Origin: an uncultured Acidobacteriota bacterium
GTDB lineage: Bacteria > Acidobacteriota > Terriglobia > Terriglobales > Acidobacteriaceae
Reading direction: 5' to 3'
DNA length: 64,000 nt
NCBI GenBank assembly: GCA_963799305.1
Contig: CAWCWX010000004.1
Span: forward strand, 43,320-107,319
The position numbers and the translations under genes are program-made. The notes under the pieces are model-generated. The model did no database searches. It saw only the letters and a program-made list of their open reading frames with translations, and had not been told where the DNA came from. Below are positions 1 to 39,591 of the stretch, piece by piece (the stretch's first letter is position 1; each line of letters starts with the position of its first letter).

Positions 1-948
1 GCGGAAATCCGTAACCGAGCCGGCATATGGCTTTGGAACGTAACGCCAGCAGGCGTCATCGTTGATTTGCCAAATTCGGCCGAGCACAAGCGCAGTGGAC
101 CAGGCAGCATCCGCATTCTTCTTGAACTTTGCCAATAACATTCCTCGCCATACCGGAATTCGGCTGCGCAATATCTCTGTCTTTTCCTCAAGAAACTTGG
201 ACGCGCCAGCCAAGTCAAGGCTCAGGAAACTGGCCAGATGGAAAATGAAGCGCTGGAATGCATAGCTGCTTTTGCTCCAAAGCGTGATCGGGATCTTCGA
301 CCAGTTCATGGTGTCGAACATCGCGAGCAGGGCCACTTGCTCGCCATCCGCTTGGAGTTGCTGAGCCGCTTCGTAGGCGATTGTGCCGCCACCGCAGTAG
401 CCGCCGAGAAAATATGGTCCATGCGGCTGAATTCTTCTGACCTCCTTCAAGTAAAGGTAAGCCATATCCTCCACGGTTGTGAGCGGAGGGAGACTGCCGT
501 CCAACCCCTGAGACTGCAGGCCGTAGAAAGGTTGATCCGAGCCCAAGTGCCGTGAAAGATCGCGATAGATCAGAACGTTTCCGCCAGCTCCGTGGAAACA
601 GAAGAAAGGCGGGCGCGAGCCTTGAGGTTGAATTGCGACCAGTGGCGACCAACCGGGCGTGGACATTTCGCCGCAAATAACCCGGGCGAGCTCTTCGATG
701 GTAGGAGTTTCGTAAAGCGTGGCCAAAGGCAATTTGACTTTGAATATCTCTTCGATTTTGGCGAACATCCTCACGGCAAGGGATGAGTCACCGCCAAGAT
801 CGAAGAAGTTTTGATCGACACTGACGGAGTCGAGTCCAAGGAGCTCTTGCCAGATGGGAACAAGCTCGCCTTCTGTGGCGTCAACGGCGGTGACTTCTTT
901 CGGTTGTTCGACTGCCTCCGCGATCCCTTGAGTGTCCATGTTGCTCAT
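1..948 (-). CDS. Carrier protein (PCP/ACP)-thioesterase didomain protein; the 3' end runs off the left edge of the window
   Basis: The minus-strand frame is open from ATG 948-946 down to position 1. It is absent from the ORF track because it is unterminated in the window. My translation is MSNMDTQGIA...NFFDLGGDSSLAVRMF (phosphopantetheine attachment motif, Ser codon 786-784), then PPFFCFHGAGGNV and LGGYCGGG (alpha/beta-hydrolase nucleophile elbow, Cys codon 396-394). Confidence 0.8.
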   Translation of the reverse strand, partial: MSNMDTQGIAEAVEQPKEVTAVDATEGELVPIWQELLGLDSVSVDQNFFDLGGDSSLAVRMFAKIEEIFKVKLPLATLYETPTIEELARVICGEMSTPGWSPLVAIQPQGSRPPFFCFHGAGGNVLIYRDLSRHLGSDQPFYGLQSQGLDGSLPPLTTVEDMAYLYLKEVRRIQPHGPYFLGGYCGGGTIAYEAAQQLQADGEQVALLAMFDTMNWSKIPITLWSKSSYAFQRFIFHLASFLSLDLAGASKFLEEKTEILRSRIPVWRGMLLAKFKKNADAAWSTALVLGRIWQINDDACWRYVPKPYAGSVTDFR

Positions 949-1078
949 GTTGACCACACTACCGCCATTCTGCTGCCGTTGTTGGGGACATTTCTTGGGG
1001 GAGGTTACCGCAGGACTACTCTGTTATGACCACCAGTCACACAGTATGGAAGTTACGTTAAGTGCGAACAACGGTGGC

Positions 1079-2515
1079 TTAATTCTTCAATGAAGCGTAA
1101 CCCAAAATGGCTTTGAGTTCAAGGAATTCCTGCAGCCCTGCCTCGCCCCATTCGCGGCCATTCCCCGACTGTTTGTAGCCCCCAAAACAGCCCGCGAAAT
1201 CTACTCTGGCCCCATTCACGTGAACGTTCCCCGCGCGAATCCGCTTCGCCACTCGGCGTGCCCGCTCCAGATCCCGCGACGAAACGTAGCCGGACAGTCC
1301 GTAGGGGCTGTCGTTGGCGATTCTGACGGCGTCGTCCTCGTCCTCGTAAGGAATGATGCAAAGGACCGGCCCGAAGATCTCCTCGCGCGCGATGGTCATG
1401 TCGTTGCGAACGCCAGCGAACACCGTCGGCCTCGCGAAATAGCCCCTGGTGTGCCCATCCGCTCGGCCCGGCCCACCCGCAACCAATGTGGCACCCTCTT
1501 TGATCCCTGCCTCGATCATCCGCTGCACTTTTTCGAACTGAGCTTTGCCCGCCAGGGGACCGATGTGTGAGCCGTCGCTGGACGGTGAGTCCACTGAGGT
1601 CGAATCAGCCGCATTCTTGGCGACTTTGATCGCTTGCTCCATTTGGGAGTGCGGAACTAGCATGCGGGTTGGTGCGTCGCAAGACTGGCCGGTATTGCGG
1701 AAGCAGGCTTGGACGCCCTCCTTCACAGCGCTTTCGAGATTTGCATCATCCAAAATGATGTTTGCTGTTTTGCCACCCAGTTCCTGAGTAACGCGCTTGA
1801 TCGTGGGGGCCGCGGCGGTCGCAACCGCAATGCCGGCCCGGGTTGATCCCGTAAAAGAGACCATCGCTACGTCAGGATGCGAAGCAATCGCGGCGCCCAC
1901 CGTGGGACCGTCGCCGTTGATCAAATTGAAAACGCCAGCGGGGACGCCAGCTTCATGCAGAATCTGCGCAAAGAGATATGCGGAGAGCGGCGCGTTTTCA
2001 CTTGGCTTGAGCACCATCGTGCATCCCGCTGCAAGCGCCGGCGCTACCTTGCATCCGACCTGGTTCATGGGCCAGTTCCAGGGAGTGATCAGTCCACACA
2101 CTCCGACCGGTTCCTTGCGCATCAGGGTTGTGCCCTTCAGTTCCTCGAACTGGAAGTGCTCGAGAACTTTCGCGATCTCGACAAAATGAGCGAGCCCGGC
2201 CGGCACCTGCGCCTTTCGGCAAAGCGCGATCGGAGCTCCCATTTCCTCTGAAATCGTCTCCGCCAGCGCATCGCTCTTTGCCTGGTAAACCTCAATGATC
2301 CGGCGGAGAAGTGCTAGGCGGGCTTCAACGGTGGTCTCGGAGTAGGAATCGAACGCCCGTTTCGCAGCGAGCACAGCTTTGTCGACGTCAACGGGACTTC
2401 CCATCGATATCATTGCAATGGCTTCTTCGGTGGCAGGATTTCTGACTTCGAAGTCGCGCGTCTGGGCCGGGTCAACCCACTTTCCATCAATGTAGAACTG
2501 GCGACAATGTTTCAT
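1079..2515 (-). CDS. NAD(P)-dependent aldehyde dehydrogenase family protein
   Basis: 478-aa ORF with the ALDH hallmarks ELGGK (general-base Glu) and FRNTGQSCDAPTR (catalytic Cys). The N-terminus FYIDGKWVDP is typical of the family. It is co-directional with the GT2 gene upstream (57-nt gap) and the PCP-TE gene downstream (130-nt gap). Confidence 0.9.
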   Translation of the reverse strand: MKHCRQFYIDGKWVDPAQTRDFEVRNPATEEAIAMISMGSPVDVDKAVLAAKRAFDSYSETTVEARLALLRRIIEVYQAKSDALAETISEEMGAPIALCRKAQVPAGLAHFVEIAKVLEHFQFEELKGTTLMRKEPVGVCGLITPWNWPMNQVGCKVAPALAAGCTMVLKPSENAPLSAYLFAQILHEAGVPAGVFNLINGDGPTVGAAIASHPDVAMVSFTGSTRAGIAVATAAAPTIKRVTQELGGKTANIILDDANLESAVKEGVQACFRNTGQSCDAPTRMLVPHSQMEQAIKVAKNAADSTSVDSPSSDGSHIGPLAGKAQFEKVQRMIEAGIKEGATLVAGGPGRADGHTRGYFARPTVFAGVRNDMTIAREEIFGPVLCIIPYEDEDDAVRIANDSPYGLSGYVSSRDLERARRVAKRIRAGNVHVNGARVDFAGCFGGYKQSGNGREWGEAGLQEFLELKAILGYASLKN

Positions 2516-2572
2516 TGCCTCAGTATAGTGTGAGGCGAGCTAGAGCGGATTTGAGAAGCGATCTGAGGTTCC

Positions 2573-3484
2573 CTAAAGACCTGCTCCACCCGAAACGCTC
2601 TCTTTGTGCGGGTCGTAACGCTTTCGGAGGAGCCGGTAAAAGAACGAGGTACTCCTTTGCAGGGATTGCCGAATTGTTAGCGTCACCCATGCTGATCGGC
2701 CGATGGACGGATCTTTCGAAGCCTTCCACATCACTCCGAGCATCTTAAGACGCTCTCGATGAGTCATGCGAATGCGGACTCCCCTGGAAGCGATATGGTC
2801 GTATGTACTCGCTTCCAACAAGGCCGATCGAACGTCTTTACGAAAACATTTGAGCAGAGACAATGGAATGTCGTGTTCTATAACCGCATCTCTGACGTAA
2901 TAGGGAAGTTCCCCGCGTTCGATCAGGGTAGCCAATAACAGCGTGTCTTCTGCTCGAACGGCGGAGGGATCAAAAAGGCCTTTTTCGAAATCCACCTTCG
3001 AGCGTCGAATCGCAAATCCAGCGGTGTTCAAGTAGCGAATGGACCCATCCGGCCGGAGCAGTTGGTTTTGAAGTGCTTTCAATCGGAGTTCTTCTGCCCG
3101 GCCGACCACGCCGCGGCCGTTTCCAGCAAGGCTAAGCTGAAAGTAGTTCTTTGCAGGCAGGGCGGCGGCGGTTGATGCCAAACCCGAGAGACACTTCGGT
3201 CGCAGTCGGCTATCCGCGTCTACAAACAGAAGGAGCGACCCTTGGGAGGTGTGAATTCCGTAGTTTCTCGCGCTGGAGATCCCCGCATGAGGCTGCCTCA
3301 GAACGGTCAACCGAAAATGGTTGGAGAATTGTCGAATCGATTCGGGGGCAGGCTGGTCGCTGCCGTCGTCGATGACAATGACCTCAGAATCTGGGGGGGC
3401 GGTTTGGTCCGCCAGCGAGGCTAGGCAGGGATTCAGTGCCGCCCAGTCATTGTAAACAGCGATGATAACGCTGAGTAGCGGCAT
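2573..3484 (-). CDS. Family 2 glycosyltransferase
   Basis: The ORF track gives 2573..3766, but the GT-A signature begins at the internal ATG 3484 (MPLLSVIIAVYNDWAALNPCLASL...EVIVIDDGSDQ, later FVDADS). The upstream 94 codons start at TTG and are Cys/Pro-rich, unlike a GT2 N-terminus, so I prefer the shorter start. Confidence 0.75.
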   Translation of the reverse strand: MPLLSVIIAVYNDWAALNPCLASLADQTAPPDSEVIVIDDGSDQPAPESIRQFSNHFRLTVLRQPHAGISSARNYGIHTSQGSLLLFVDADSRLRPKCLSGLASTAAALPAKNYFQLSLAGNGRGVVGRAEELRLKALQNQLLRPDGSIRYLNTAGFAIRRSKVDFEKGLFDPSAVRAEDTLLLATLIERGELPYYVRDAVIEHDIPLSLLKCFRKDVRSALLEASTYDHIASRGVRIRMTHRERLKMLGVMWKASKDPSIGRSAWVTLTIRQSLQRSTSFFYRLLRKRYDPHKESVSGGAGL

Positions 3485-3862
3485 CGGCGGATGTAGGATG
3501 GCATAATCGATCCGGAAATCACAGCTCAATGAGTGACATTCGTCACATGGATCGAGTTTGGGGGATAGGGGTACTCTCGCCAAGTACGGGCGGCGGGAAG
3601 ATGCCGTTGGCCCTTTGCTACAAGGTCCACAGGGGTCGCCACAGGCCACCACGCCCCGGCGATTGAGGTCATGTATCTGTATGAAAATATAGCTAATTGG
3701 GAGCGGACCGTCGGTTCTTGTCGAGCCTCCAAAGAAACTTGACAGGAGTCCCAAAGCACGCGACAATAAGTTCTCCCTCGGTTAGTGGTATCCCCCTCAG
3801 TGGTTGTTTGAGTTCCCCCTAGGGTCCAGTAAGATCAGCCATTCATAATCCAGGAGAACGCC

Positions 3863-5107
3863 TTGCCCGAGTCCATGGTAATAGCCAACCCAAGTGTCCC
3901 CGTGAGACGACCAGTACAGATCAAGGAAGTTGTTGTCATTGGAGCCGGCCCGTATGGGTTGAGTGCCGCAGCTAATTTGCTTGCCGCTGGCACCGAGCCC
4001 TATGTCATCGGGCAAGCGATGTCCTTCTGGAAAAGAAGTATGCCGGGAGGGATGCTTCTTCGCTCGAAGAATGAAGCCTCAAACATCGCCGCTCCGCAAA
4101 AGCACCTTTCCCTCAAAGCGTACGAAAAAGCAATCCGGCGCAAAATAGCCGACCCCGTGCCGATTGAGGACTTCATCGCCTACGGAGAGTGGTTCCAAAA
4201 ACAAGTCGCTCCAGATCTCGATACTCGCCAGGTGCAGAAGGTCTCCCATGACGGCGGAATTTTTGAGGTGACCTTCGAGGATGGGGACAAACTGCAGGCC
4301 AAGTCCGTGGTATTGGCTCTCGGTATTGGCCCTTTTGCCTATCGGCCCGAGCAGTTTGCCGATATACCCCGGGAACTGGCTCCGCATTCTTCGGACTTCA
4401 ACGAGTTTTCCCGATTCAAGGGGAAACGGGTCGCGGTACTCGGACGAGGTCAGAGCGCACTCGAGTCGGCAGCTCTCCTCCATGAGCACGGTGCCGAGGT
4501 CCAGATTCTCACTCGCGACCCGGCGCTCATCTACCGACCATACGCATGGAAGAAACATATCTTTCGCGCCTTGACTTCAGGCCCTCTCCTTCCACTTTCT
4601 TACCGAGTCATTCCGCCGACTGATCTGGGTGATGTATGGACTTCCCGAAAGATGGCAAAGCCCGAATTATTTCGGCGGCAGACCCCAGAGGATCAAGAGA
4701 AGCTCCTGCGGGCGTGCGCAAGGCCGATCGGCGCCTACTGGCTGGAGCCACGGCTAAAGAATGTACGGCTGAAGACCGGGGTGAGCGTTGGCCGGGCTGC
4801 CATCTCTCGAGATGGCTTGAAGATTGAACTGAGCGATGGAGTCACAGACACTGTGGATTTTGTCGTGTGTGCCACTGGCTATCGGATTGATATTTCGAAA
4901 TACCAGATCGTGGATAGTTCGCTCCAGAGGAAGATCGAGAAGACTTCCCAGGGCTATCCAGTATTGGATATGAAGTTGCAGACAACTGTTCCGGGGCTCT
5001 ACATGGCAGGAGTCATTGGAGAGAAAACCCTAGGGCCGACATTGCGATTCGTAACTGGAACCTCCAATGCTGGTCCGCGGTTAGCGGCATCGATCACTGG
5101 CAAATGA
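3863..5107 (+). CDS. FAD/NAD(P)-binding oxidoreductase, flavin monooxygenase-like (lysine/ornithine N-monooxygenase type fold)
   Basis: 414-aa ORF with two dinucleotide-binding motifs, VVVIGAGPYGLSAA and VAVLGRGQSALESA, plus a C-terminal CATGYRID (ATG motif). Confidence 0.7.
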   Translation: MPESMVIANPSVPVRRPVQIKEVVVIGAGPYGLSAAANLLAAGTEPYVIGQAMSFWKRSMPGGMLLRSKNEASNIAAPQKHLSLKAYEKAIRRKIADPVPIEDFIAYGEWFQKQVAPDLDTRQVQKVSHDGGIFEVTFEDGDKLQAKSVVLALGIGPFAYRPEQFADIPRELAPHSSDFNEFSRFKGKRVAVLGRGQSALESAALLHEHGAEVQILTRDPALIYRPYAWKKHIFRALTSGPLLPLSYRVIPPTDLGDVWTSRKMAKPELFRRQTPEDQEKLLRACARPIGAYWLEPRLKNVRLKTGVSVGRAAISRDGLKIELSDGVTDTVDFVVCATGYRIDISKYQIVDSSLQRKIEKTSQGYPVLDMKLQTTVPGLYMAGVIGEKTLGPTLRFVTGTSNAGPRLAASITGK

Positions 5108-5117
5108 TTCTCCGCCA

Positions 5118-6488
5118 TTGACCACACAGGCACGCAAAAAGAAACGGAGCCCAATGCGAAAGACTAATAAGGATCGACCAGGAGCAATCATTCTAGGTGG
5201 AAATTTTGTCGGGTTGGGAATTGTGAGAAGTCTCGGAGCGCGTGGCATTCCGGTTTGGGTGATCGACGCCGACCGCTCCAAGTCGATCGCTCAGTTTTCC
5301 CGATTCACTACGCGATTCATAGAAACCAAAGAACCAATTGTCGAGGTCCTTCTTCGAGAGGGAAGAGAACATCATCTCGATGGCTGGGTCCTGTTTCCTG
5401 TCGCCGACGAATACGTCGAAATCCTGTCCGACAATCGTCATCTTTTAAGTGCAATCTACCGGGTGACTACCGCGCCCCCCGACGTCACAAAATTTGCGCT
5501 GGACAAGCGGTTGACCTATCGTCGGGCTGATGAATTGGGCATTGCGACTCCCTGGACTTCGGTCGGCGACTCAGTGGCCGAGGTGGAAACAGAAGGCGTT
5601 CCTTATCCAGCAATTCTGAAGCCCGCCGTCAATCATCATTTCTTTCCGCAGACGAATATTAAGGCGCTCCCGGTCGAAAACCGATCGGAGTTGGAACGGG
5701 GATTTGCTCAAATGAGCAAATATATTCCGCCGGATGAGATTCTTGTCCAGGAGCGCATTCCCGGAGGGGGAGAGAATCAGTTTTCCTATTGTGCGGTCTG
5801 CAAAGACGGACGCGCCTATGCGTCGCTGGTGGCGCAGCGCAGGCGGCAATATCCGGTGGATTTCGGCAATGCCAGCACGTTTGTGGAAACAACGAGCCAA
5901 CCCGTCGTCGAAGAAGCCGGCCGACGGTTCCTGGAGAGTATCGGATTTGATGGCATGGCCGAAGTAGAGTTCAAGTTTGATTCGAGAGACGGAAAATACA
6001 AGATTCTCGACGTCAATCCGCGAACCTGGGGTTGGCATACGCTAGGTAAAGCTGCCGGAATGGATTTTTCCTATCTACTCTGGGGTCAGGCGGTAGGGCT
6101 GCCAGTAGTGCCCATTGAGGCAAAGCACAAAGCGGCCTGGATTCGGGAGATCACAGATATCGTGGCCATCGCCAAGTCGCGCAATCGTTGGGCTGACGTC
6201 AAAAGACTGATGACGGCACTCTACAGCGGCAGGTTCACTTCGGCCACCTTCAGCGTTGTGGATCCAGTTCCGTTCTTCGCTGAGTTGGGGTTGTGGATTT
6301 CTTCAGGCGTATCACGACAAAGAAAAGCCAAGGCGTTTCTCCAGCTCAATCCTTCCAGTTCTCAACCTGAGCGATCGGGCGCGCGAGAGGTTTCTGGAGG
6401 GGTTCCCCGTTCTCGGGCTCGGTTCTGGCCGTTTGCGAGTGTTAGGACCACTCGGAAGGCAGCGAAGGTGGTGCAGGCGGGGCCATAG
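5118..6488 (+). CDS. ATP-grasp superfamily carboxylate-amine ligase-like protein
   Basis: 456-aa ORF starting 10 nt after the previous stop. It has an N-terminal GAIILGGNFVGLGIVRSLGARGIPVWVID and ATP-grasp-like strings PAILKPAV, LVQERIPGG and AEVEFKFDSRDGKYKILDVNPR. Confidence 0.75.
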   Translation: MTTQARKKKRSPMRKTNKDRPGAIILGGNFVGLGIVRSLGARGIPVWVIDADRSKSIAQFSRFTTRFIETKEPIVEVLLREGREHHLDGWVLFPVADEYVEILSDNRHLLSAIYRVTTAPPDVTKFALDKRLTYRRADELGIATPWTSVGDSVAEVETEGVPYPAILKPAVNHHFFPQTNIKALPVENRSELERGFAQMSKYIPPDEILVQERIPGGGENQFSYCAVCKDGRAYASLVAQRRRQYPVDFGNASTFVETTSQPVVEEAGRRFLESIGFDGMAEVEFKFDSRDGKYKILDVNPRTWGWHTLGKAAGMDFSYLLWGQAVGLPVVPIEAKHKAAWIREITDIVAIAKSRNRWADVKRLMTALYSGRFTSATFSVVDPVPFFAELGLWISSGVSRQRKAKAFLQLNPSSSQPERSGAREVSGGVPRSRARFWPFASVRTTRKAAKVVQAGP

Positions 6489-6625
6489 TGAGACCCCGCA
6501 AAATGATCTCGTTGTCTTGTTGAAGTCCGGGGCCGGGGAGCGGTTTACAATGGGCAGGTCGGGTCGCGGAACGCGACGGCCATCGACTTTGATCGCGGCC
6601 AGGACTTCTGCAAGGACTGGGCAGG

Positions 6626-7402
6626 ATGAACGTGAGCAGCGTATTTGCGGGTGCCCCGAAGCTGGGCCGTGAAGGTTCGTGGTCACAGCCAGCGTCGCCG
6701 CCGGGTTTCCCGACTCGCCATGTTGACGTCTGGAGAGTGCGTCTTGACGAATCCGCAACACCGGGCTTCGAGAGCAGCATTCTGTCGCCAGATGAGATTG
6801 CGCGCGCCAGCCGATTTCACTTCGAGAAAGATCGAATTCACTTCAGCCGATGCCGCTCGGCACTTCGATTCTTGCTTGCGGACTACCTCGCTATCCCCGC
6901 CGCCGAGATTTGCTTTGAGTATATGGCCGCTGGAAAGCCTCAACTCGCAGCCGGACAGAATCCACGCGCGTTGCACTTCAACGTATCCCACTCGAGCGGC
7001 ATTGCGTTAATCGCGGTTGGCAGTGGGGAACCATTGGGCGTGGACATAGAAAGAATCCGCAGAGATGTGGACACAAATTCGCTGGCCGAGAGATTTTTTT
7101 CGATTCGTGAACGCGCCGGGCTTCGGGCCTTACCGAAGCATCTCCGCGTGCCAGGCTTTTATGCCTGCTGGACGCGCAAGGAAGCTTTCCTCAAGGCGAC
7201 GGGCGACGGACTCTCATTTCCGCTGGCGAATTTCTCCGTCACTGTCCACCCTGAACGCGATCCTGAACTTGAGGAGATCGATGGGAACCTGGAGGCTGGG
7301 AAGCAATGGTTTATGGCAGACCTCAGCGTCGCGGAAGGCTACCGCGCCGCAGTGGCGATCGAGCGCTCCGATTGCCGTTTGGAGACTCATGGATGGAACT
7401 GA
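6626..7402 (+). CDS. Sfp-type 4'-phosphopantetheinyl transferase
   Basis: 258-aa ORF with the PPTase motifs VDVWRVRL, GVDIERIR and WTRKEAFLKATGDG. Confidence 0.85.
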   Translation: MNVSSVFAGAPKLGREGSWSQPASPPGFPTRHVDVWRVRLDESATPGFESSILSPDEIARASRFHFEKDRIHFSRCRSALRFLLADYLAIPAAEICFEYMAAGKPQLAAGQNPRALHFNVSHSSGIALIAVGSGEPLGVDIERIRRDVDTNSLAERFFSIRERAGLRALPKHLRVPGFYACWTRKEAFLKATGDGLSFPLANFSVTVHPERDPELEEIDGNLEAGKQWFMADLSVAEGYRAAVAIERSDCRLETHGWN

Positions 7403-7456
7403 TACTGGTATCGCGGGGTCTGTCCTAACCCCAGCGAACTGGTTGAACACCTGCCG

Positions 7457-8347
7457 ATGAAGCCAAAGCCCTATCATGCCTTCACTGGGGGCTTCGTTAT
7501 CTTGGTAGCGATGTCCGTGATGTTCTGGTGGCGTCCGTTGAGAGACACATTAAGGCTTGCGCTCGAACAAGATGCCTACACTCACATCTTGCTGATTCTC
7601 CCGTTGGGCGCGGCGCTCATCTATTTGGATTTCAAGGCTCTCCGAACCGACCTGCATCCCAGTCCTCGCATCGGCTCGGTGTTGCTGGGTCTGTCGTTGC
7701 TCATCGGTTGTTTTGAAAGGTGGGGGATGGCGGGCGCGTCTGAAGATGTCCGGCTGACGATCGCAATATTTGCGCTCGTGACGTGGTGGATCGCGAGTGT
7801 TAAGGTCTGTTTCGGCGAGCACACTTTTCGGTTCTTGCTGCTTCCATTGTGCTTCTTGTTCTTACTGGTGCCCCTTCCGGAAGTCGTACTGAACGTGATC
7901 GTTCGATCTCTTCAACACGGATCGGCCTGGATGGCCGCATTGCTCTTTCAGGTTGTCGGCGAACCCGTCCAGCGGGATGGAGTGCTAATCTCGCTCACGA
8001 ATTTGGATCTCGAAGTTGCCAAGGAATGTAGCAGCATCAGGTCCAGTTGGATGTTGGTTGTTACCTCAATCGTTCTCGCTGATTTGTTCTTGCGTTCGTG
8101 GCAGAGGAAAGCGCTGCTCATCGCCGCCGCAATTCCACTGTCCGTAATCAAGAATGGCCTGCGGGTGTTTACGATCGGAGAGCTTGGAACTCGAGTAGAC
8201 CCTGGCTTCCTTGATGGGAACCTGCATCATCACGGAGGGATTGTTTTCTTTGGCATTGCGGTGCTTGGCGTCGGCGCCCTGCTATGGGCGCTGCGGAGAA
8301 GCGAGTTGTCGATACGGAGTGAGGCCGACGTATCGGTTGAGACATGA
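7457..8347 (+). CDS. Exosortase family protein (stand-alone, no EpsI domain)
   Basis: 296-aa polytopic membrane ORF starting 54 nt after the PPTase stop. The conserved exosortase residues are in context: Cys in LEVAKECSSIRSS, Arg in IKNGLRVF, His in NLHHHGGIVFF. Confidence 0.85.
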   Translation: MKPKPYHAFTGGFVILVAMSVMFWWRPLRDTLRLALEQDAYTHILLILPLGAALIYLDFKALRTDLHPSPRIGSVLLGLSLLIGCFERWGMAGASEDVRLTIAIFALVTWWIASVKVCFGEHTFRFLLLPLCFLFLLVPLPEVVLNVIVRSLQHGSAWMAALLFQVVGEPVQRDGVLISLTNLDLEVAKECSSIRSSWMLVVTSIVLADLFLRSWQRKALLIAAAIPLSVIKNGLRVFTIGELGTRVDPGFLDGNLHHHGGIVFFGIAVLGVGALLWALRRSELSIRSEADVSVET

Positions 8348-8568
8348 AGGTAGGCGACCATCCAACCCTCTACCACTCACGAAAGAGAGAGCGTGTGTTC
8401 TCATATGCCGTCGAGATTCCGGGCCGGTTTCAGAAATCAGGTTTTCAGGGCTGCGAGTTTTTCCGTCAAGACATGAGCTGCCAATCAAGCCGAAAACAGC
8501 AGAGCGCCAGCGCTCGCGTTTTCGCTTAAATGCATTTGGTACCACCCAAAAATGATGTTCTTATAAAG

Positions 8569-8588
8569 AGTTGCAAGGAATTGCAACT
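8569..8588. promoter_or_regulatory. Candidate operator: perfect palindrome AGTTGCAA-ggaa-TTGCAACT
   Basis: An 8-bp perfect inverted repeat with a 4-nt spacer, in the ~470-nt non-coding gap after the exosortase gene. It uses the same half-site (TTGCAAC) as 16380..16406. Confidence 0.4.
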
Positions 8589-8820
8589 ATGGCGCACCCT
8601 TTGTCGATGTCAGATGGAATCTCGCGACAAACCCTAGATTAATGAGCCTGTTACTCGGCACTGCCGACTCGCAAAGTGTCGAAGATCGTTCAGTTCATGA
8701 AACGGGATCTGTCAATCTTTTGCGGTCCGCAGCGCCACCGACTGGTGTATAATCTCGCCCGCTCGCGACTGCCCTGTTTTTAGGGCATCCACTCGTTCTA
8801 TGAGTCAGGAGGGTTTTAGC

Positions 8821-9066
8821 ATGGGCCACTTTGATCGTCTGCAGTTGATTGGAAGGATTACCTACTACGTCGGCTGGATTGCGCTGATCGCCGGTGGACT
8901 GGTGCAACTTAACATTGCAGCAAAGCTCTTCTTGGCGATCAGTCTAACGAAGCGCAATCTGTTTGAGCTCAGTGCGATTTGCTTCGTGATTTGCATTGCC
9001 TCGGCTCTCCGAGCCCTCATCCTGGCCGGAGACCAGATGTCCGGATCTATGAGAAAAGCTGCGTAG
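8821..9066 (+). CDS. Small membrane protein, unknown function
   Basis: The ORF track gives 8800..9066. The internal ATG 8821 is preceded by AGGAGG (8807-8812) at 8-nt spacing. Two hydrophobic helices are present (ITYYVGWIALIAGGLVQL and LSAICFVICIASALRALIL). I recognised no family. Confidence 0.5.
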   Translation: MGHFDRLQLIGRITYYVGWIALIAGGLVQLNIAAKLFLAISLTKRNLFELSAICFVICIASALRALILAGDQMSGSMRKAA

Positions 9067-9374
9067 GGGATCGCTTGCACCCCGATGGGTGCGAACTGCG
9101 CTACGGCTCCATCATTTATCGACTCCCGTTGCGGGAGTTTCATTGCGTCTACATGGAAGCTCGGCGAGCAGAGCTGATCCTCACTAATAAGGGCTATCCC
9201 TGTCTTGTTGACCAGCCGGGACCCATGCGACGAGGGGGTTAGGGTACCAGTGTAGTCTAGCGAATCTCCCCGACCGCCTTGTCCCCGATGAACAGGCACT
9301 TGTCGGACTGTGAGTAATTGATCGTTATTCCGATACGTTAGTGACTAGATATTCACCTGGTGGCGACATCGCGA

Positions 9375-9429: not shown

Positions 9430-10353
9430 CTATTCCAGGTCTTTTAGCTTCGAATTGCTGACAGGCTCAACGCAGTTGGTAATACCGCCTGTTCTCGCGA
9501 CAAAGTGAGTGATCGTGAATTGCGGGGCGCAGTTTACGTCCAGACCACTCAAGTTACCCGTTACAGTGGCGCTTTGGAAGCCCGCGAAAGAGGCGTCTTC
9601 CAGATGGACACCGTCACCGCCATTGCCGGTTACTATCGCACTATTCCGAAACGCTACCGTGGAGCCAGCGCGCATTGTTATGCCATTACCGACGCTCCCA
9701 CTCACTGTACCGCCGAGGAGTGACAGGTTGGACGAGGCCGCCAAAATGCCACTCCCGTTGTTGAGAACGCTGGAATTGGAAGCCAGGAAGTAAGACCCTT
9801 CGAGGACGATTCCTTGCGCCCCATTCGTTTGGAAAACGTCATTGCTGCTGGACATTTGCGAACCACCTTCGACCGTTGCGCCGCGGCCCCCGTTCTCGAT
9901 CACATTGCTCTCAAGAAAGGAACGGGAACCACCACTTACCCCTACACCCCCAGCCTCAATCGTGTTGCCAGTCAGGTAACAAACACTTGCGGAGCCACAA
10001 TTCACGCCCCCGACTCCGCCGATGATAGTGAATCCCTGCACGGTCACGCTGTGCGAGTCCTCAACGTCCACGACCGCTAAGGTTCCGTTGGAACGGTCCC
10101 TGATCGAGGCGCCATTCTTGGTGATCAGGGTCAGTCGATCCATGCTTTGAACCACTATGTTCTCTCTGCAACTGCCTGCCACAAATATCGTATTCGGTCC
10201 CTGGGGATTGGCATTCGCCAAAAGTTTCACGGCCTTGTGAATCGTTTCTTTCTTGTCGCAATTCACGGTTAGGTTCGCAGCTTGAGCGCGCTGGCTGGCC
10301 GCCCCAATACACCCCAATAGAATCAACGCAAAAACCCTTGCTCTTTGTCTCAT
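9430..10353 (-). CDS. Secreted right-handed parallel beta-helix repeat protein
   Basis: The ORF track gives 9430..10440. ATG 10353 yields the signal peptide MRQRARVFALILLGCIGAASQRAQA. Gly/Asn/Val-rich coils of ~22 residues repeat through the protein (VTVQGFTIIGG, NTIEAGG, NVIENGG, IVLEGS, VLNNGSG, AIVTGNGGDG). Confidence 0.7.
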   Translation of the reverse strand: MRQRARVFALILLGCIGAASQRAQAANLTVNCDKKETIHKAVKLLANANPQGPNTIFVAGSCRENIVVQSMDRLTLITKNGASIRDRSNGTLAVVDVEDSHSVTVQGFTIIGGVGGVNCGSASVCYLTGNTIEAGGVGVSGGSRSFLESNVIENGGRGATVEGGSQMSSSNDVFQTNGAQGIVLEGSYFLASNSSVLNNGSGILAASSNLSLLGGTVSGSVGNGITMRAGSTVAFRNSAIVTGNGGDGVHLEDASFAGFQSATVTGNLSGLDVNCAPQFTITHFVARTGGITNCVEPVSNSKLKDLE

Positions 10354-10429
10354 GATGTTCACCTCGATGAAGTTCAAATTCCTTTCGCGTTCAATACAGG
10401 CTTTCGTGCCTTCCTTACTCGCAGAGCCG

Positions 10430-11086
10430 CTATGGCACAACCGTGATGGTGACTGTTCCCAGTTCTCCCGTGTCCAAGGTTGCGGTAATTGTGGTGGTCC
10501 CAGTCGCTACAAGTGTGGCGTGTCCACCAAGGTAGGGATAAATGTCCACGATTCCGCCCGGGCTCGCTGTCCAAGTCGCGAGGCCACCGACATCCAGTGT
10601 GCTGCCATCGGGAAAAGTTTCTGTCGCATAGAAGTCGATCTCTGGAGTTGCAGACAGACTGAAGGGGCCCGTCGGAGTGATGTCCAGGACACCCGTCTGC
10701 CCGACGACCACCAGTGTCGAACCCGTTTTCCCGTCCAGAGATACCCTAATCGTGGCCGAACCGATCCCCGTCCCGGTGACCAGCCCCTTATTCACCATTG
10801 CTACGTCCGGGTTCGAAGTACTCCAAGGTGCAGAGCTGGTCACATCTTTGTCAGCGAAGTCGGTGGCGGAGATTTGATATTCAGCGTTCGCACTCACCTG
10901 AACCGTCTTACCCACCGCGATGGAGGGCGCCGAACGAGGTTGCAGAGTGACGGCGACCAGAAACGGATACTTTTGTTGGTTGGTACCCGCGTTGGTGGCG
11001 CTATTGCACGCCACCAGAGTCAGCAGGGGCAGCGGAAGGGCCCCAAACAAAATTAGTGAGAAGATCTTTGCTGCCATGGTCTTCAT
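10430..11086 (-). CDS. Lipoprotein with bacterial Ig-like (Big_2-type) domains
   Basis: 218-aa ORF with the lipobox LTLVAC and Ig-like strings TVQVSANAEY...WSTSNPDVAMVNKGLVTGTGIGSATIRV and ATWTASPGGIV...ATLVATGTTTITA. Confidence 0.75.
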   Translation of the reverse strand: MKTMAAKIFSLILFGALPLPLLTLVACNSATNAGTNQQKYPFLVAVTLQPRSAPSIAVGKTVQVSANAEYQISATDFADKDVTSSAPWSTSNPDVAMVNKGLVTGTGIGSATIRVSLDGKTGSTLVVVGQTGVLDITPTGPFSLSATPEIDFYATETFPDGSTLDVGGLATWTASPGGIVDIYPYLGGHATLVATGTTTITATLDTGELGTVTITVVP

Positions 11087-15953: not shown

Positions 15954-15985
15954 AGCTCGCCTCCGAGTGATTCCGGAGGCGAGCT
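15954..15985. terminator. Hairpin between convergent genes (probable terminator)
   Basis: A perfect 12-bp stem, AGCTCGCCTCCG / CGGAGGCGAGCT, lies between ugd (+) and the PEP-CTERM-like gene (-). On the minus strand it is followed by TTTGTAGTT. Confidence 0.5.
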
Positions 15986-16011: not shown

Positions 16012-16248
16012 CTATGATTGATTGGACTGCAGCGAGCGCGAACGGATTACCATCGCACCCAAGCAGGTGATGCCTGCGCCAAGCAGGTAGATGGCAGCCG
16101 ATCCGCCTTCCGGCACTTGCTGACATCGCCGATCGCGTCTCGGATCGCATCCACGGTCTCCGTCTCTACCCGGCTTTCCAGCAAAAGACGCGGGCGCCAA
16201 GCAGAGTAGAAACAAAGCAGCTAAAACTAATTTTCGATTGCTCTTCAT
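16012..16248 (-). CDS. Mini-protein with signal peptide and PEP-CTERM-like sorting domain (VPEGG variant)
   Basis: The ORF track gives 16012..16269; I chose ATG 16248 (GGAG 11 nt upstream). The product is MKSNRKLVLAALFLLCLAPASFA (signal), GKPGRDGDRGCDPRRDRRCQQ (core), then VPEGGS, AAIYLLGAGITCLGAMVI (TM) and RSRS (basic cluster). Confidence 0.65.
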   Translation of the reverse strand: MKSNRKLVLAALFLLCLAPASFAGKPGRDGDRGCDPRRDRRCQQVPEGGSAAIYLLGAGITCLGAMVIRSRSLQSNQS

Positions 16249-16406: not shown

Positions 16407-16538
16407 TGAGCGAGGTTTTTCCAAGCCGGAATTTCTTAAGAAGTCAGATAGTATTTGAAATTTTTATAAATCATTGATTATGCTGGCATTACAGCCACAC
16501 GTCGTTCTTGTTGATTGCAGTTCGATCGCGTCAGAACC

Positions 16539-16883
16539 ATGCGAAAGATTCAACAGTACGTCCTTCCGTTCGGTCTTATTGCCTTCGTATTCGCAGTCGC
16601 CCTGATGCGATGCACAGGTCCGGCCAAGCCTCACTATGTGACCCTCACGTGGGACCCTCCTGCCGCCCGCACTGGCGTCACACTCGCGGGATATAACGTC
16701 TACCGCCGTACAGCCGAGAGCAATTCTCCGGTCAAGATCGCCGAGAAAGTAACTGGCCCAACTTATGAAGACCGGCTGGTGAGCAGTGGCCGGAAGTACG
16801 TGTATGTGGTGACTTCAGTGGACACAACCGGCCGCGAAAGCGGGTTTTCGGCACCGGCGTACGCAGAGATTCCCTCACCTTAG
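16539..16883 (+). CDS. Membrane-anchored single FN3-like domain protein
   Basis: The ORF track starts at TTG 16515; I prefer ATG 16539. A hydrophobic N-terminus (YVLPFGLIAFVFAVALMRC) is followed by HYVTLTWDPP...GYNVYRR...YVYVVTSVDTTGRESGFS...AEIPSP. This resembles the C-termini of the 34175..39286 and 39592..40266 products. Confidence 0.7.
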   Translation: MRKIQQYVLPFGLIAFVFAVALMRCTGPAKPHYVTLTWDPPAARTGVTLAGYNVYRRTAESNSPVKIAEKVTGPTYEDRLVSSGRKYVYVVTSVDTTGRESGFSAPAYAEIPSP

Positions 16884-33023: not shown

Positions 33024-33998
33024 TTGGAGAGGTCGGTGAAAATTGTACATGTTGTCGGAGCTCGCCCAAATTTCATGAAGGTGGCGCCAGTGCTGGAGGC
33101 GCTGCGCGCGAAGAACGGAATAGTTCAAACCCTGATTCATACCGGTCAGCATTATGACGCCAACATGTCGGATGTGTTCTTCAGGCAGCTTAGCCTTCCG
33201 GCCCCGGACGTGAATCTCGAGGTTGGCTCCGGGACGCATGCAGCGCAGACGGCAGAGATCATGGCGCGGCTGGAGCCGGTGGTTGCGAATTGCAAACCGG
33301 ACATGGTGCTCGTGTATGGGGACGTCAATTCAACGGTGGCGACCGCCCTAGTCTGCGCCAAGATGGGCGTCCGGGTAGGGCATGTGGAAGCGGGGCTGCG
33401 GTCGTTTGATCGCAGCATGCCGGAGGAGATCAATCGGCTGGTGACGGACCAGTTGGCGGATTTGCTGTTTACTCCTTCGGAAGATGGCGACGAAAATCTT
33501 CGGCGGGAAGGGATTGCGTCGGAGAGAATTCATCGTGTGGGGAATGTCATGATCGATTCGCTGGTGCGACTGCTTCCCCTGGCGAAGAAATGCAACATGA
33601 GCGGATTCCCGGAGCGATACGTGCTGGTGACGCTGCACCGGCCGTCGAACGTAGACGACAGCGCGACCCTCAAGGGAATTTTGGAATCGCTGCTGGAGAT
33701 CAACGAACGGATTGCCGTGGTGTTTCCGGTGCATCCACGCACGCAGCAGAGGATCGCTGCGCTTGGCGTTCCTCTGAGCAATCTCCATTTGTCTGAGCCA
33801 TTGCCCTACATCGAGTTTCTGGCACTCCAAAGCAGGGCTACGGCGGTGCTGACGGATTCCGGGGGCATCCAGGAAGAGACGACGTACCTGGGGGTGCCGT
33901 GCCTCACGCTGCGCACGAACACGGAGCGGCCGGTCACGGTGACCATAGGCACGAACACTTTGGTGGGACAGGATCGCCAGAAACTTACGCGGAACTGA
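33024..33998 (+). CDS. wecB: UDP-N-acetylglucosamine 2-epimerase (non-hydrolysing), C-terminally truncated by a frameshift
   Basis: Motifs are KIVHVVGARPNFMKVAPV, TGQHYD, NMSDVFF, VGSGTHAAQTA and DSGGIQEETTYLGVPCLTLRTNTERP. The canonical C-terminus continues in two other frames to TGA 34093-34095. Confidence 0.85.
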   Translation: MERSVKIVHVVGARPNFMKVAPVLEALRAKNGIVQTLIHTGQHYDANMSDVFFRQLSLPAPDVNLEVGSGTHAAQTAEIMARLEPVVANCKPDMVLVYGDVNSTVATALVCAKMGVRVGHVEAGLRSFDRSMPEEINRLVTDQLADLLFTPSEDGDENLRREGIASERIHRVGNVMIDSLVRLLPLAKKCNMSGFPERYVLVTLHRPSNVDDSATLKGILESLLEINERIAVVFPVHPRTQQRIAALGVPLSNLHLSEPLPYIEFLALQSRATAVLTDSGGIQEETTYLGVPCLTLRTNTERPVTVTIGTNTLVGQDRQKLTRN

Positions 33999-34174: not shown

Positions 34175-37100
34175 TCACGGGGTCGGGATCACCGCTTGCA
34201 CTTCATTTGAAGGACCGCTCTCGACATTGCTCGAATCCACGGCTTTGGCTACGTAGAAGTAGGTCTGCCCGGAGGTGACGCCGCTATCGGTGTAGGCGGT
34301 GGTTGCCACCAGGGAACCACCGTTGATCGGCGACCCGTACGAACCGGACGCAGTACGGCGGTAGACGTTGTATCCGACCACGTTCGGCGACCCGCTGGCG
34401 TTCCAGGTCAAGTCGACACTGTGCGGTAGCGGCGCCTGGCCGTTGCCCGTGAGGGCTTCGACGGTGGGTGAGTTCGACGCGTTGCTCAGGAACGTCAGGC
34501 TGGCGCTCGCAGCGCCGCTGGCGTTCGGTGTGAAGGTAACCGTAAAGGTAGCGGATTGCCCGGCCGCGATGGTTTTCGGGAGAGTGATTCCAGAGAGTAC
34601 GAACTCGGAGCTATCACTGCTGCCCGAGGAAACCGTCACCGAGGCGCCGGTGGCGGTTAGGCTGCCGCTCAGGGCCTTGCTTGAATTCACCAATACGTTG
34701 CCGAAGTTCAGAGTGCTCGGTGAGACCGACAGTTGACCCGGAGCACCTCCCGTCCCGGACAGGCCGATGTTCAAGGGGGAATTCGACGCATTCGAGATAA
34801 TTGCCAGGGTTCCGCTTACAGCCCCGGCAGCTGTGGGGGCAAACGTGGCGGTGAAGGTGACGCTCTGGCCGGAGTTGAGCGTCGTCGGCAATGTCAAGCC
34901 GCTGATGGAGAAGCCTGTCCCGGTGACATTGGACTGCGAAATGGTCACGCTCGATCCGCCGGTGTTGGTCACGGTCTCGGATAGATTCGAGCTGTTTCCT
35001 ACCTGTACGGTTCCGAACGACAGACTTGTTGGATTCGCGGAAAGTGTTCCGGGTGTAACGCCTGTTCCGGAAAGCCCTATGTTAAGCGTGGGGTTCGATC
35101 CGTCCGAGGTGATTTTGACGTTGCCAGTGACCGCTCCGGCGGAGGTGGGCCCAAACTGCACCGTGAAACTGGTGCTTTGGCCGGCCGTGAGTGTCAGGGG
35201 CAACGAAAGCCCACTGATGCTGAAACCGGTGCCCGTTGTGGAGGCCGCGGAAATTGTCAGGCTCGATCCGCCCGAGTTCGTCAACGTCTCGGTCAGAGGC
35301 TTCGAGGAACCCACCACTACGTTGCCGAAACTCAGGCTGGTGGGATTGGGCGTCAGCGAACCCGGTGCAACGCCGGTCCCGGAAAGCGGGATGTTCAGCG
35401 GCGAGTTGGTCGCATCCGAGACGATCGCCAGGTTGCCGCTGACTGCACCGGCTGTGGTCGGTGCGAACTTGACGGAAAAGGTCACGGTCTGCGTCGGCGT
35501 CAAGGTTACGGGTAACGAGAGTCCGGTGACTGTGAAGGTTGCGCCGGTGATGTTCGCCTGGGAAATGGTGACGTTGACTCCGCCCGTGTTGGTGAGCGTT
35601 TCCGAAAGGCTGGCATTGCTGCCAATCTGCACGTTGCCGAACGAGAGACTCGTGGGATTTGCGGAGAGTGTTCCGGCGGTGACCCCGGTTGCCGAAAGAG
35701 CGATGTTCAGGGTCGGGTTAGAGCCGTTGGATGTAATAGTGACGTTGCCGGTCGCGGCGCCGGTGGCAGTGGGCGTAAACAGAACGTTGAAGGTCGTGGT
35801 CTGACCCGCAGCGAGCGTGATCGGCAGGTTCAGCCCGGTGATGCTGAAGCCGGTGCCGGTGGCTGCCGCGGCGGAAATTGTAAGGCTCGTGCCGCCAGAG
35901 TTGGTCAGGGTCTCAGTCAGAGTTTTGGAGCCGCCCACCGCAACATTGCCGAAACTCAAACTTGCGGGATTCGGGGTGATCTGGCCCGGCGTCACACCTG
36001 TTCCGGAAAGCGGCACGGTGAGTGTTGGATTGTTGGCGTCCGACGTGATCGTCAGATTGCCGCTGGCGCTGCCAGCGACCGTTGGAGTGAAGACGGCGTT
36101 GAAGGTGGCGGACTGTCCGGCGTTGAGGGCGACGGGGAGCGTGGGCCCGTTAAAGCTGTAGCCGGTGCCGGTCGCCGCAGCGTTCGAGATGTTGACCGTG
36201 GTGCCGCCCGTGTTGGTGACGACAACGGCTACCGATTTGTTGTTACCCACCGTCACGTTGCCGAAGGCGACGCTGCTCGGATTAGCCGTCAGCGAACCCG
36301 GTGCAACGCCGGTCCCGGAAAGCGGAATGTTCAGCGGCGAGTTGGTCGCATCCGAGACGATCGCCAGGTTGCCGCTGACTGCACCCGCGGCGGTCGGTGC
36401 GAACTTGACGGAGAAGGTCACGGTCTGCGTCGGCGTCAAAGTTACGGGTAACGAGAGTCCGGTGACGGTGAAGGTTGCGCCGGTGATGTTCGCCTGGGAA
36501 ATGGTGACGTTGACTCCGCCCGTGTTGGTGAGCGTTTCCGAGAGGCTGGCGTTTCCGCCAATCTGCACGTTGCCGAACGAGAGACTCGTGGGATTTGCGG
36601 AGAGTGTTCCGGCGGTGACCCCGGTTGCCGAAAGAGCGATGTTCAGGGTCGGGTTAGAGCCGTTGGATGTAATGGTGACGTTGCCGGTCGCGGCGCCGGT
36701 GGCAGTGGGCGTAAACAGAACGTTGAAGGTCGTGGTCTGACCCGCAGCGAGCGTGATCGGCAGGTTCAGCCCGGTGATGCTGAAGCCGGTGCCGGTAGCC
36801 GCCGCGGCAGAAACTGTAAGGCTCGTGCCGCCAGAGTTGGTCAGGGTTTCAGTCAGAGTTTTGGAGCCGCCTACCGCAACATTGCCGAAACTCAAACTTG
36901 CGGGATTCGGGGTGATCTGGCCCGGCGTTACACCTGTTCCGGAAAGCGGCACGGTGAGTGTCGGATTGTTGGCGTCCGACGTGATCGTCAGATTGCCGCT
37001 GGCGCTGCCAGCGACCGTTGGAGTGAAGACGGCATTGAAGGTGGCGGACTGTCCGGCGTTGAGGGCGACGGGGAGCGTGGGTCCGTTAAGGGTGTAGCCG

Positions 37101-39286: not shown

Positions 39287-39591
39287 GCCGCGTGCGACGG
39301 GGGATTTCGGGTCACGGGAAGGTTGGAACGATTCCTCCCAGCGCTTTCATTGTCACGGCCAGCGCCTGAAAGTCGACAGATTGCGGAAGGACTACAGGGG
39401 ATGTGGAATCGGACACAGCACTATGGTTCGCAATTTGCCTTTAGAAATTGAGGGAGTTACTGCAGTGCTACTTGGAAAGTGGCGGAGGGACAGTGCGGGA
39501 ATGTCCAGTAGTACCCGGCCGCGCGATGAAGGAACTGTATGCTTCGCTCGTAAGTGTCGCTGGGGAGGGTGTCCGGGAATGCGGTTACGCG

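Follow-up and report, generated by a model that had tools for sequence, protein, structure and literature searches.

Exosortases are very common in environmental bacteria, where they are tied to biofilm and floc formation, and the chemistry that follows cleavage, namely whether the substrate is transferred and to what, is to our knowledge still unknown. The XrtA/PEP-CTERM (EpsH) system is accompanied by an acyl-CoA ligase, a carrier protein, a decarboxylase and two hydrolases, the 'exosortase A system-associated' families. Haft (2006) makes no mention of the exosortase-A-associated ligase, carrier or decarboxylase genes. Dedicated pairs of a sorting enzyme and its target, such as JDVT-CTERM, have been defined by Haft (bioRxiv 10.1101/2023.06.07.544157), and archaeosortase A, the Cys-Arg-His enzyme of the PGF-CTERM system, couples the removal of the C-terminal helix to lipid attachment (Haft 2023 preprint). 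N-acyl amino acid synthase (NAS) genes are linked to PEP-CTERM/exosortase loci, as the work of Craig, Cherry and Brady (2011, J Bacteriol 193:5707) is cited in PMC7293339. Here, a stretch of 64,000 nucleotides from an uncultured Acidobacteriota bacterium (contig CAWCWX010000004.1, positions 43,320 to 107,319; hereafter the window) is analysed around a 296-aa exosortase encoded at 7457-8347. By a modest measure of probability, this enzyme forms a conserved unit with a 78-aa mini-protein carrying a VPEGGS tail, while the carrier-protein cassette beside it is a separable module that fills a variable upstream slot and serves the same surface structure.

The left end of the window carries two divergent gene runs ending, on the plus strand, with the exosortase gene. 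The gene content was established from the list of open reading frames (ORFs) together with Pfam and NCBIfam scans:

948..1, minus strand: peptidyl carrier protein (PCP) plus thioesterase (TE), termed PCP-TE no. 1 (PF00550 62.8 bits, PF00975 99.7 bits), its C-terminus truncated by the window edge
2515..1079, minus strand: aldehyde dehydrogenase (ALDH; PF00171 526 bits)
3484..2573, minus strand: GT2 glycosyltransferase, the start at 3484 giving the N-terminus MPLLSVIIAVYN
3485..3862, no strand: divergent intergenic region between the two cassette arms, with one promoter-like match at 3739-3767 (plus strand), at chance level
3863..5107, plus strand: class-B flavin monooxygenase-like protein (Pyr_redox_2, Pyr_redox_3, Lys_Orn_oxgnase)
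5118..6488, plus strand: ATP-grasp ligase (weak Pfam matches; the database gene call starts at 5154)
6626..7402, plus strand: Sfp/HetI-type phosphopantetheinyl transferase (PPTase; PF01648 72, PF22624 40)
7457..8347, plus strand: exosortase of 296 aa (PF09721 145.1)

The seven genes and domains named in an earlier sequence-only reading of this DNA are confirmed by these data, and its intergenic gaps of 10, 137 and 54 nt on the plus strand and 57 and 130 nt on the minus strand are correct. The longest ORF of the GT2 gene extends to 3766; the family-typical N-terminus begins at 3484 and supports the start chosen in that reading. The monooxygenase displays features of Lys/Orn N-monooxygenases and its best solved relative is the small class-B enzyme SMFMO (4a9w, 4c5o). 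Both the ACPS and AASDHPPT_N domains are present in the PPTase, which is thus of Sfp type and misses the HetI equivalog cutoff (172.9 against 370). The region between the two arms presumably contains promoters. A promoter and terminator consensus scan of 1-9500, a weak test for Acidobacteria, returned chance-level counts and no match in 6489-6625 or 7403-7456; independent promoters or terminators, which would have separated these genes, were therefore not seen by it, and at chance level the matches decide nothing on operon structure.

The 296-aa protein clears the exosortase family cutoffs (PF09721, 145.1 against 25.7; TIGR02602, 111.7 against 105.55; TIGR04178, 57.9 against 23) and fails all of the curated NCBIfam subtype models. 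The best-scoring subtype is XrtC/VPDSG-CTERM (TIGR04151), with which the protein shares a similar size, the lack of a fused EpsI domain and a signal of the form V-P-[DE]-x-G-S. In contrast, the score of 163.7 lies below the cutoff of 300, and the motif is VPEGGS here rather than VPDSG. The XrtA model (TIGR03109; 138.4 against 208) and those of XrtW, XrtD, XrtV, XrtB and other subtypes are also failed. Cys191 (ECSSIRS), Arg236 (KNGLR) and His257 (HHHGG) are invariant across 36 exosortase orthologues, so the catalytic residues on which the sequence-only reading depended are in place. Because every defining feature that can be tested in a sequence is present, the protein is, at that level of evidence, an exosortase with intact catalytic residues and no curated subtype. 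Its earlier description as stand-alone holds in that neither a fused EpsI domain nor an adjacent EpsI gene was found, but the window as a whole also encodes a second exosortase, XrtD with EpsI, at 46546..44954. Homologues number more than 2000, the best 120 being 60-100% identical and 245-348 aa long (mostly 287-306 aa), and the few with a named source come from metagenome-assembled genomes of Terriglobales, Acidobacteriaceae and Terriglobia, apparently from peat and permafrost sites (palsa, SPRUCE). No solved exosortase structure was found by sequence search. The enzyme belongs to an exosortase subfamily without a curated model, one found widely among Terriglobales (Acidobacteria).

A candidate partner was discovered by scanning the window for C-terminal hydrophobic plus basic tails, which gave one convincing candidate, the only tail of VPEGGS type in the 64 kb:

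16248..16012, minus strand: mini-protein of 78 aa, with a Sec signal peptide, a basic two-cysteine peptide of ~24 aa and a VPEGGS-helix-RSR tail (C-terminal tail scan)
15954..15985, minus strand: terminator-like hairpin of 13 pairs, directly past the mini-protein stop codon

The three parts of the mini-protein are, in order, MKSNRKLVLAALFLLCLAPASFA, GKPGRDGDRGCDPRRDRRCQQ and VPEGGSAAIYLLGAGITCLGAMVIRSRSLQSNQS. The sequence-only reading stated that no substrate gene lies inside the cassette, which is literally true, but it missed this cognate-looking gene; the overlooked partner redefines the functional unit of the exosortase. In the window the two genes lie 7.7 kb apart. By tblastn, a mini-protein homologue lies immediately downstream of the orthologous exosortase, in convergent orientation, in the related loci L001 to L006. 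A census was then made of 90 loci, 68 after dereplication and all apparently of Terriglobales; the larger sample comes from a metagenome scan with an exosortase alignment, a single-protein scan of genome contigs having given five loci. In the 68 dereplicated loci the mini-protein is the most constant neighbour of the exosortase. Where 3 kb or more of flank is available (32 dereplicated loci), its gene lies convergently within 3 kb downstream in 26, and it is found within 700 nt in 23 of 50 loci. An exosortase and a protein with a cognate tripartite signal therefore co-occur at locus level, with the adjacency of the dedicated pairs defined by Haft, in which an enzyme and one small target also stand side by side and recur across lineages. 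Here, in contrast, the enzyme is an exosortase and not a CAAX-type protease, and related tails also occur on larger proteins, so that the relation may be one-to-many. On these sequence data, the mini-protein 16248..16012 is proposed as the cognate substrate of the 7457-8347 exosortase.

Among the 165 unique members of the mini-protein family, the median length is 76 aa and VPEGGS is present in 146. Mature parts span 14-37 aa (median 24 aa) and contain two cysteines in 131 of 151 cases (87%), while the tail consensus combines VPEGGS, an invariant Tyr, a Cys within the helix and GAM..RSR; some loci carry two copies of the gene. All database members are unnamed or 'hypothetical' and without a Pfam domain, and in at least three related loci the gene was not called by gene callers. 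In the Pfam and NCBIfam scans the tail gave no match to the PEP-CTERM models (TIGR02595/PF07589) at E-values of up to 1 or 10, and no curated sorting-domain model recognises it. A profile search of 1.84 billion representatives returned 298 matches, mostly of 60-130 aa. The weaker ones include unrelated secreted proteins of 215-336 aa with [VM]PEGG[AS]A..YLLLAG.SC.GAM.FRSR at the extreme C-terminus, and one long VPEGG-tailed protein has a sub-threshold PEP-CTERM match (13 bits against a cutoff of 16). The order of motif, hydrophobic helix and basic cluster is thus found at the extreme C-terminus of otherwise unrelated proteins with signal peptides, which is the behaviour of a genuine sorting domain and indicates that the system may have several targets.

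Three candidate interpretations were set aside. The top profile match, P0363 (1791 aa, 16 stretches), is an immunoglobulin (Ig)-repeat protein whose repeat 'EPVGGSTVVFSLGAG' mimics the motif, and is a false positive. The mini-protein is not regarded as a lipoprotein, there being no lipobox cysteine at its signal-peptide cleavage site. The idea that the ATP-grasp ligase acts at the C-terminal Glu of the mini-peptide, as LysX does with LysW, was dropped because the mini-protein is exported and the ligase cytoplasmic. Separately, a B12-binding radical S-adenosylmethionine (SAM) enzyme lies beside the exosortase/mini-protein pair in L001 (5634-7232, minus strand) and in L021 (~154 nt upstream of the exosortase), an arrangement that raises the idea that the two-cysteine mini-peptide may be modified by such an enzyme before export.

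A second census, with A, C, KS, AT, PCP-TE and PPTase sequences as queries, addressed carrier-protein genes around the exosortase. Of the 30 dereplicated loci that offer 5 kb or more of flank, 14 have thiotemplate or PPTase genes upstream, and such genes were found downstream in none of 26. The upstream carrier-protein machinery has at least five different architectures, given here together with the loci that have only a PPTase upstream:

Window-type cassette
C-PCP-TE with VanZ-LamG, with or without the B12 radical-SAM enzyme, then epimerase and PPTase: L001, L031, L040, L033
PPTase, oxidoreductase and a 2653-aa FAAL-ACP-KS-AT-ACP-C-PCP-TE protein: L061
A-PCP, P450 and C-A-PCP-TE: L065
KS-AT..PCP-TE
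PPTase only upstream: L002, L003, L044, L066, L090

Most carrier-gene loci include a PCP-TE with a cysteine nucleophile (PCP-Cys-TE) or an orthologous PPTase. The PPTase is orthologous between loci (58-85% identity) and lies upstream of the exosortase in many of them; the Cys-TE recurs in the window type, the C-PCP-TE/VanZ-LamG type and the FAAL-polyketide synthase (PKS) type. There is thus a real locus-level link between carrier-protein chemistry and the exosortase. No thiotemplate or PPTase gene is present in the available upstream flank of the other 16 of the 30 loci, most of which keep the exosortase/mini-protein pair; several have rml, Wzx (flippase), epimerase or Ig-repeat genes in that place. 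Across all loci, the upstream content other than the cassette includes rml, Wzx, glycosyltransferase, VanZ-LamG and B12 radical-SAM genes, and nonribosomal peptide synthetase (NRPS) or PKS genes. The recurrence of PPTase, ATP-grasp and PCP-TE neighbours, which the sequence-only reading proposed to check, stands for carrier genes and PPTases in general, but the specific cassette is separable from the exosortase (L091-L093, below).

These loci resemble the XrtA system in that an exosortase lies in an exopolysaccharide (EPS) region with carrier-protein-dependent enzymes, and PEP-CTERM-system genes are found in the same window. They differ in that the carrier is an NRPS-type PCP fused to a TE and the partner is a single mini-protein, adjacent in relatives. 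No 'exosortase A system-associated' family, whether of ligases, carriers, decarboxylases or hydrolases, was among the NCBIfam matches listed for the window proteins scanned, in agreement with the earlier proposal that the cassette is not orthologous to that set. NAS loci, as cited in PMC7293339, offer a second likeness, acyl-carrier-dependent biosynthesis being found repeatedly beside exosortase genes with a functional link suspected but unproven. PCP-Cys-TE, ATP-grasp and PPTase genes take the place of NAS here, and the exosortase subfamily and the phylum are different.

The cassette itself extends past the window edge. Exact look-ups of the window's ALDH and exosortase in a contig index found nothing, and the content past the edge was deduced from L006 and L008, where the whole arrangement is kept (exosortases 84% and 73% identical, respectively). 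The order is TPP (thiamine pyrophosphate) enzyme, PCP-TE no. 2, class IV aminotransferase, PCP-TE no. 1, ALDH and GT2, diverging from flavin monooxygenase, ATP-grasp, PPTase and exosortase, with the PPTase absent from L008. The ALDH is 94% identical to its L006 counterpart and 79% to that of L008. Parts of the cassette are found in L049 and L086 (exosortases 58% identical), which have the left arm, and in L062, which has a distant monooxygenase and ATP-grasp pair. The adjacency proposed earlier is thus conserved for the whole cassette in close relatives only, L006/L007 (exosortase 84% identical) and L008, and for parts of it in L049, L086 and L062. Relatives of the ATP-grasp ligase number more than 120 cluster representatives at 68-81% identity. 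All three of the sampled ATP-grasp orthologues on long contigs, L091, L092 (2.87 Mb) and L093 (2.69 Mb), stand in the full cassette, and no exosortase or PPTase gene lies within 10 kb of it. Because these three carry it without a neighbouring exosortase, the cassette is an autonomous gene cluster, separable from the exosortase and widespread in Terriglobales. Two side observations concern its plus-strand pair: L091 has two consecutive flavin monooxygenase and ATP-grasp pairs (4942-11419), and in L006 the gene caller merged both proteins into one 895-aa product.

PCP-TE no. 1 is an NRPS-type didomain with a GGDSS motif and an alpha/beta-hydrolase TE, and resembles the terminal didomains of AB3403 (2.9e-37), EntF (5e-25) and ObiF1 (7e-14) as well as the Pks13 TE. 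Its TE nucleophile is Cys (GGYCGGG), that of PCP-TE no. 2 being Ser. The Cys nucleophile (GGYC[GLM]GG; 157-888 in the window) is kept in every cassette copy of PCP-TE no. 1, including L091-L093, and the same motif is found in C-PCP-TE and PKS-NRPS proteins upstream of other exosortase orthologues (L001, L031, L033, L040, L061). Cysteine thioesterases are rare, examples being ObiF1 (PDB 6n8e, PMC6668435) and SulM (PMC11298585), which are likewise PCP-TE didomains with the GxCxG thioesterase; the window protein differs in being free-standing, without C or A domains, and nothing in it points to lactone or lactam formation. The class IV aminotransferase lies near uncharacterised class IV structures. 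The ATP-grasp model (pLDDT 78) has L-amino-acid ligase, PylC and RizA, all amide-forming, as its nearest structural relatives; the comparison otherwise matched a generic ATP-grasp fold and no specific function. Sequence relatives are labelled D-aspartate ligase by JGI. These relationships give no direct support to the earlier suggestion that the ATP-grasp enzyme replaces a carrier-loading AMP-ligase. In butirosin side-chain synthesis (BtrI carrier, BtrJ ligase, BtrK decarboxylase; PMC11350588, PMC4431377), a ligase of the ATP-grasp clade charges a carrier protein with an amino acid, which is then tailored and passed to a sugar; this precedent holds by analogy only, whereas the nearest solved folds of the window enzyme are amide-forming ligases.

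The observations suggest the following arrangement. The conserved unit would consist of the exosortase, the mini-protein pre-protein, fn3 and Ig-repeat surface proteins, a UDP-GlcNAc 2-epimerase and, often, the orthologous Sfp-type PPTase, with the carrier-protein cassette outside it. By analogy with sortases and archaeosortase A, the pre-protein would be exported via Sec and anchored in the inner membrane by its VPEGGS-helix-RSR tail, and the exosortase would cut at VPEGGS through Cys191, Arg236 and His257, so that a disulphide-loop peptide of ~24 residues may be released or passed to an acceptor. Archaeosortase A offers a model for such a transfer; it differs from the system described here, which is known from sequence, in being archaeal, in having many large cargo proteins and in lacking thiotemplate genes. 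The cassette (1-6488, extending past the window edge) would be a self-contained thiotemplate gene cluster. Its gene composition is consistent with the conversion of an amino acid to a keto acid by the class IV aminotransferase, of the keto acid to an aldehyde by the TPP enzyme and of the aldehyde to an acid by ALDH, followed by N-oxygenation by the flavin monooxygenase and amide ligation by the ATP-grasp enzyme. The PCP-tethered product would be off-loaded by the Cys-type TE, probably onto a GT2-made glycosyl or other envelope acceptor. The upstream slot appears to vary by strain, being occupied by the cassette here and, in other strains, by different assembly lines of the PCP-Cys-TE kind, by rhamnose genes or by genes for a flippase and glycosyltransferases. 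Since the cassette fills this slot, it and the exosortase most likely contribute to one surface or EPS structure at locus level, with the exosortase step independent of this particular cassette. We infer the cleavage or transfer chemistry, the cassette chemistry and the acceptor from gene content.

This arrangement, a conserved exosortase/mini-protein unit with a separable cassette acting on the same surface structure, is favoured only somewhat, and several observations weigh against it. The upstream enrichment (Fisher p = 2.7e-5, only a guide since the loci share ancestry) and two short junctions, namely the 2653-aa synthase of L061 that stops 61 nt before the exosortase and the C-A-PCP-TE stop (TGA) of L065 that overlaps the exosortase start (ATG) as ATGA, point to a tighter and possibly direct coupling than location in the same locus. 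Shared ancestry also means that the counts overstate the number of independent events. The cassette contains no adenylation domain or other obvious PCP-loading enzyme, which leaves its proposed chemistry incomplete, and the mini-protein tail, including residues past the basic cluster, is more conserved than the 'cargo', so that it may be more than a discarded signal. In a directly coupled system, the PCP-Cys-TE pathway would build a small acyl, aminoacyl or lipid unit for the exosortase step, either as the nucleophile that receives the VPE-terminated mini-peptide or as an acyl group on the sorted peptide, and the PPTase would be kept to activate the carrier. The contrast between 14/30 upstream and 0/26 downstream, the ATGA overlap, the presence of at least five non-orthologous architectures of which most share the Cys-nucleophile TE, the orthologous PPTase lying 21-90 nt upstream of the exosortase in several lineages, the linkage of NAS genes to exosortase loci (Craig et al. 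2011, as cited in PMC7293339) and the coupling of tail removal to lipid attachment by archaeosortase A (Haft 2023 preprint) all agree with such a role. It is nevertheless doubtful, as 16 of the 30 loci have no such gene in the available flank and most of them still encode the pair, the cassette stands without an exosortase within 10 kb in three of three sampled cases, the PPTase is absent from L008 and L049, and no mini-peptide trait tracks the presence of carrier genes. Moreover, the enzymes are cytoplasmic and exosortase chemistry is expected on the membrane's outer face, which would require a lipid or exported intermediate. The carrier-tethered unit used in an exosortase-dependent step, as put forward in the sequence-only reading, thus retains its locus-level association, but the separable cassette and the 16 loci without carrier genes stand against the step itself. 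The most specific form of this coupling, in which the exosortase would transfer the VPE-terminated two-cysteine mini-peptide (~24 residues) onto a lipid or (amino)acyl acceptor made by the upstream PPTase-activated PCP-Cys-TE assembly line, is considered quite unlikely.

The same variability could reflect hitch-hiking, with the upstream stretch acting as a recombination-prone, O-antigen-like region in which clusters functionally unrelated to the exosortase land, or as a place where clusters gather round a resident general-purpose PPTase. The wide variation in what lies upstream (rml, Wzx, glycosyltransferase and radical-SAM genes among others) fits this view, as do the cassette proteins of 69-78% identity found both with and without an adjacent exosortase, the possibility that the Sfp-type PPTase serves all carrier proteins of the genome, and the rearranged window, where ancestral neighbours lie 25-37 kb off and ~5.4 kb of extra genes separate the exosortase from the mini-protein. 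A random landing site would not readily explain why carrier genes lie directly beside the exosortase even in loci with no PPTase or only a distant one (L008, L049, L065, L087), why most architectures share its strand with very short or overlapping junctions, why the Cys-TE, a rare thioesterase variant, recurs across architectures, or why downstream occurrences are zero, and hitch-hiking is accordingly judged unlikely. It is highly improbable that the mini-protein is not cargo at all but a membrane partner, pseudo-substrate, exosortase regulator or signalling-peptide precursor, with larger VPEGG-tailed proteins elsewhere as the true cargo. Such a role would account for a tail, post-RSR residues included, that is far more conserved than the 14-37-aa mature part, and for the related tails on 215-336-aa secreted proteins; against it, the two cysteines in 87% of mature parts suggest a selected structure, and the tripartite tail has the standard design of a sorting signal. 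The reading retained is therefore that of a conserved exosortase/mini-protein unit with a separable carrier-protein module upstream.

Further neighbours are dispersed through the window:

8821..9066, plus strand: small membrane protein of 81 aa with two helices, no family match
16515..16883, plus strand: small fn3-domain protein, a conserved neighbour of the mini-protein (20/32 loci)
33024..33998, plus strand: UDP-GlcNAc 2-epimerase, adjoining the exosortase in relatives and here displaced by ~25 kb
34175..40266, minus strand: ASH/Cep192-type Ig-repeat proteins with fn3 ends (1703 aa, 224 aa)
46546..44954, minus strand: second exosortase, XrtD with a fused EpsI domain (TIGR04152, 442 against 400)

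The 81-aa protein stands directly after the exosortase in L006 and L007 (82% identity), with homologues at other positions in L014, L043, L066, L070 and L078. In the census, where the ASH/Ig-repeat query was the 638-aa L001 neighbour with an fn3 end, ASH/Ig-repeat proteins follow in 15 of 26 loci, and the epimerase lies directly downstream of the exosortase in 17 of 42 and upstream in 9 of 30. Homologues of the 34175..40266 proteins flank the exosortase/mini-protein pair in most relatives. The 1703-aa protein (34175-39286, minus strand; companion 39592-40266, minus strand) contains ~13-15 ASH/Cep192/HYDIN-type Ig repeats, whose DNA is so similar that two antisense ORFs (34737-35804 and 36162-36740) finish with 45-aa tails that differ at a single residue.

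Between the exosortase and the mini-protein, 9430-15882 encodes beta-helix, Big_2 and secreted proteins, a CadC/TPR regulator and a UDP-glucose dehydrogenase, while only the small membrane protein and the dehydrogenase occupy this interval in L006. The stretch 9430-13799, with all of these genes except the dehydrogenase, is missing from this closest relative and appears to have been inserted between the exosortase and mini-protein genes. A strong terminator-like hairpin of 10 pairs (8 G-C) with a T run lies at 9382-9406 (minus strand), directly after the beta-helix gene 10440..9430. The epimerase, the Ig-repeat proteins, YjeF and XrtD, which are also ancestral neighbours, now lie at 33-46.5 kb, and ~16 kb of unrelated housekeeping-type genes at 16891-32854 (CN hydrolase, M13 peptidase, Ada/AlkA, 5'-3' exonuclease, sortilin/BNR protein, amino-acid permease) split a locus that is contiguous in L001, L002 and L095. 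Beside XrtD, at 46957-62789, lie PEP-CTERM-system EPS genes for a sigma-54-type regulator, a chain-length determinant, a TIGR03015 ATPase, a tyrosine kinase, a TIGR03013 priming glycosyltransferase (451 against 393), an O-antigen-ligase-like protein and a TIGR03108-like amidotransferase; the window showed no tail of VPLPA type. The cassette and exosortase genes thus form one flank of an extensive surface-polymer region.

Two parallels are already known, namely sorting enzymes encoded next to a dedicated target, and acyl-carrier-dependent small-molecule genes linked to exosortase loci. What appears to be new is the VPEGGS type of sorting signal, a two-cysteine cargo of very small size and the recurrent PPTase and PCP-Cys-TE neighbourhood; the library searched contained no paper combining exosortase with phosphopantetheinyl transferase, and none combining exosortase, Acidobacteria and exopolysaccharide. 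The annotation of abundant soil and peat Acidobacteria is affected, as the VPEGGS small-protein gene was overlooked by gene callers in at least three related loci and its tail is missed by current sorting-domain models. Should the carrier link hold only at the level of the locus, the cassette would still be an autonomous, widespread Terriglobales cluster that encodes a cysteine thioesterase, a rare type, and lacks an adenylation domain. The system is compact, with a 296-aa enzyme, a 78-aa candidate substrate and a mature part of ~24 residues that is easy to follow by mass spectrometry, and the strain-variable carrier-protein enzymes statistically linked to it are candidate makers of the acceptor or decoration. 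If the ribosomal mini-peptide were indeed joined to a non-ribosomal product, the assembly line would vary by strain while the off-loading domain is shared, and the locus would offer the first tractable means of finding out to what acceptor exosortases join their substrates.

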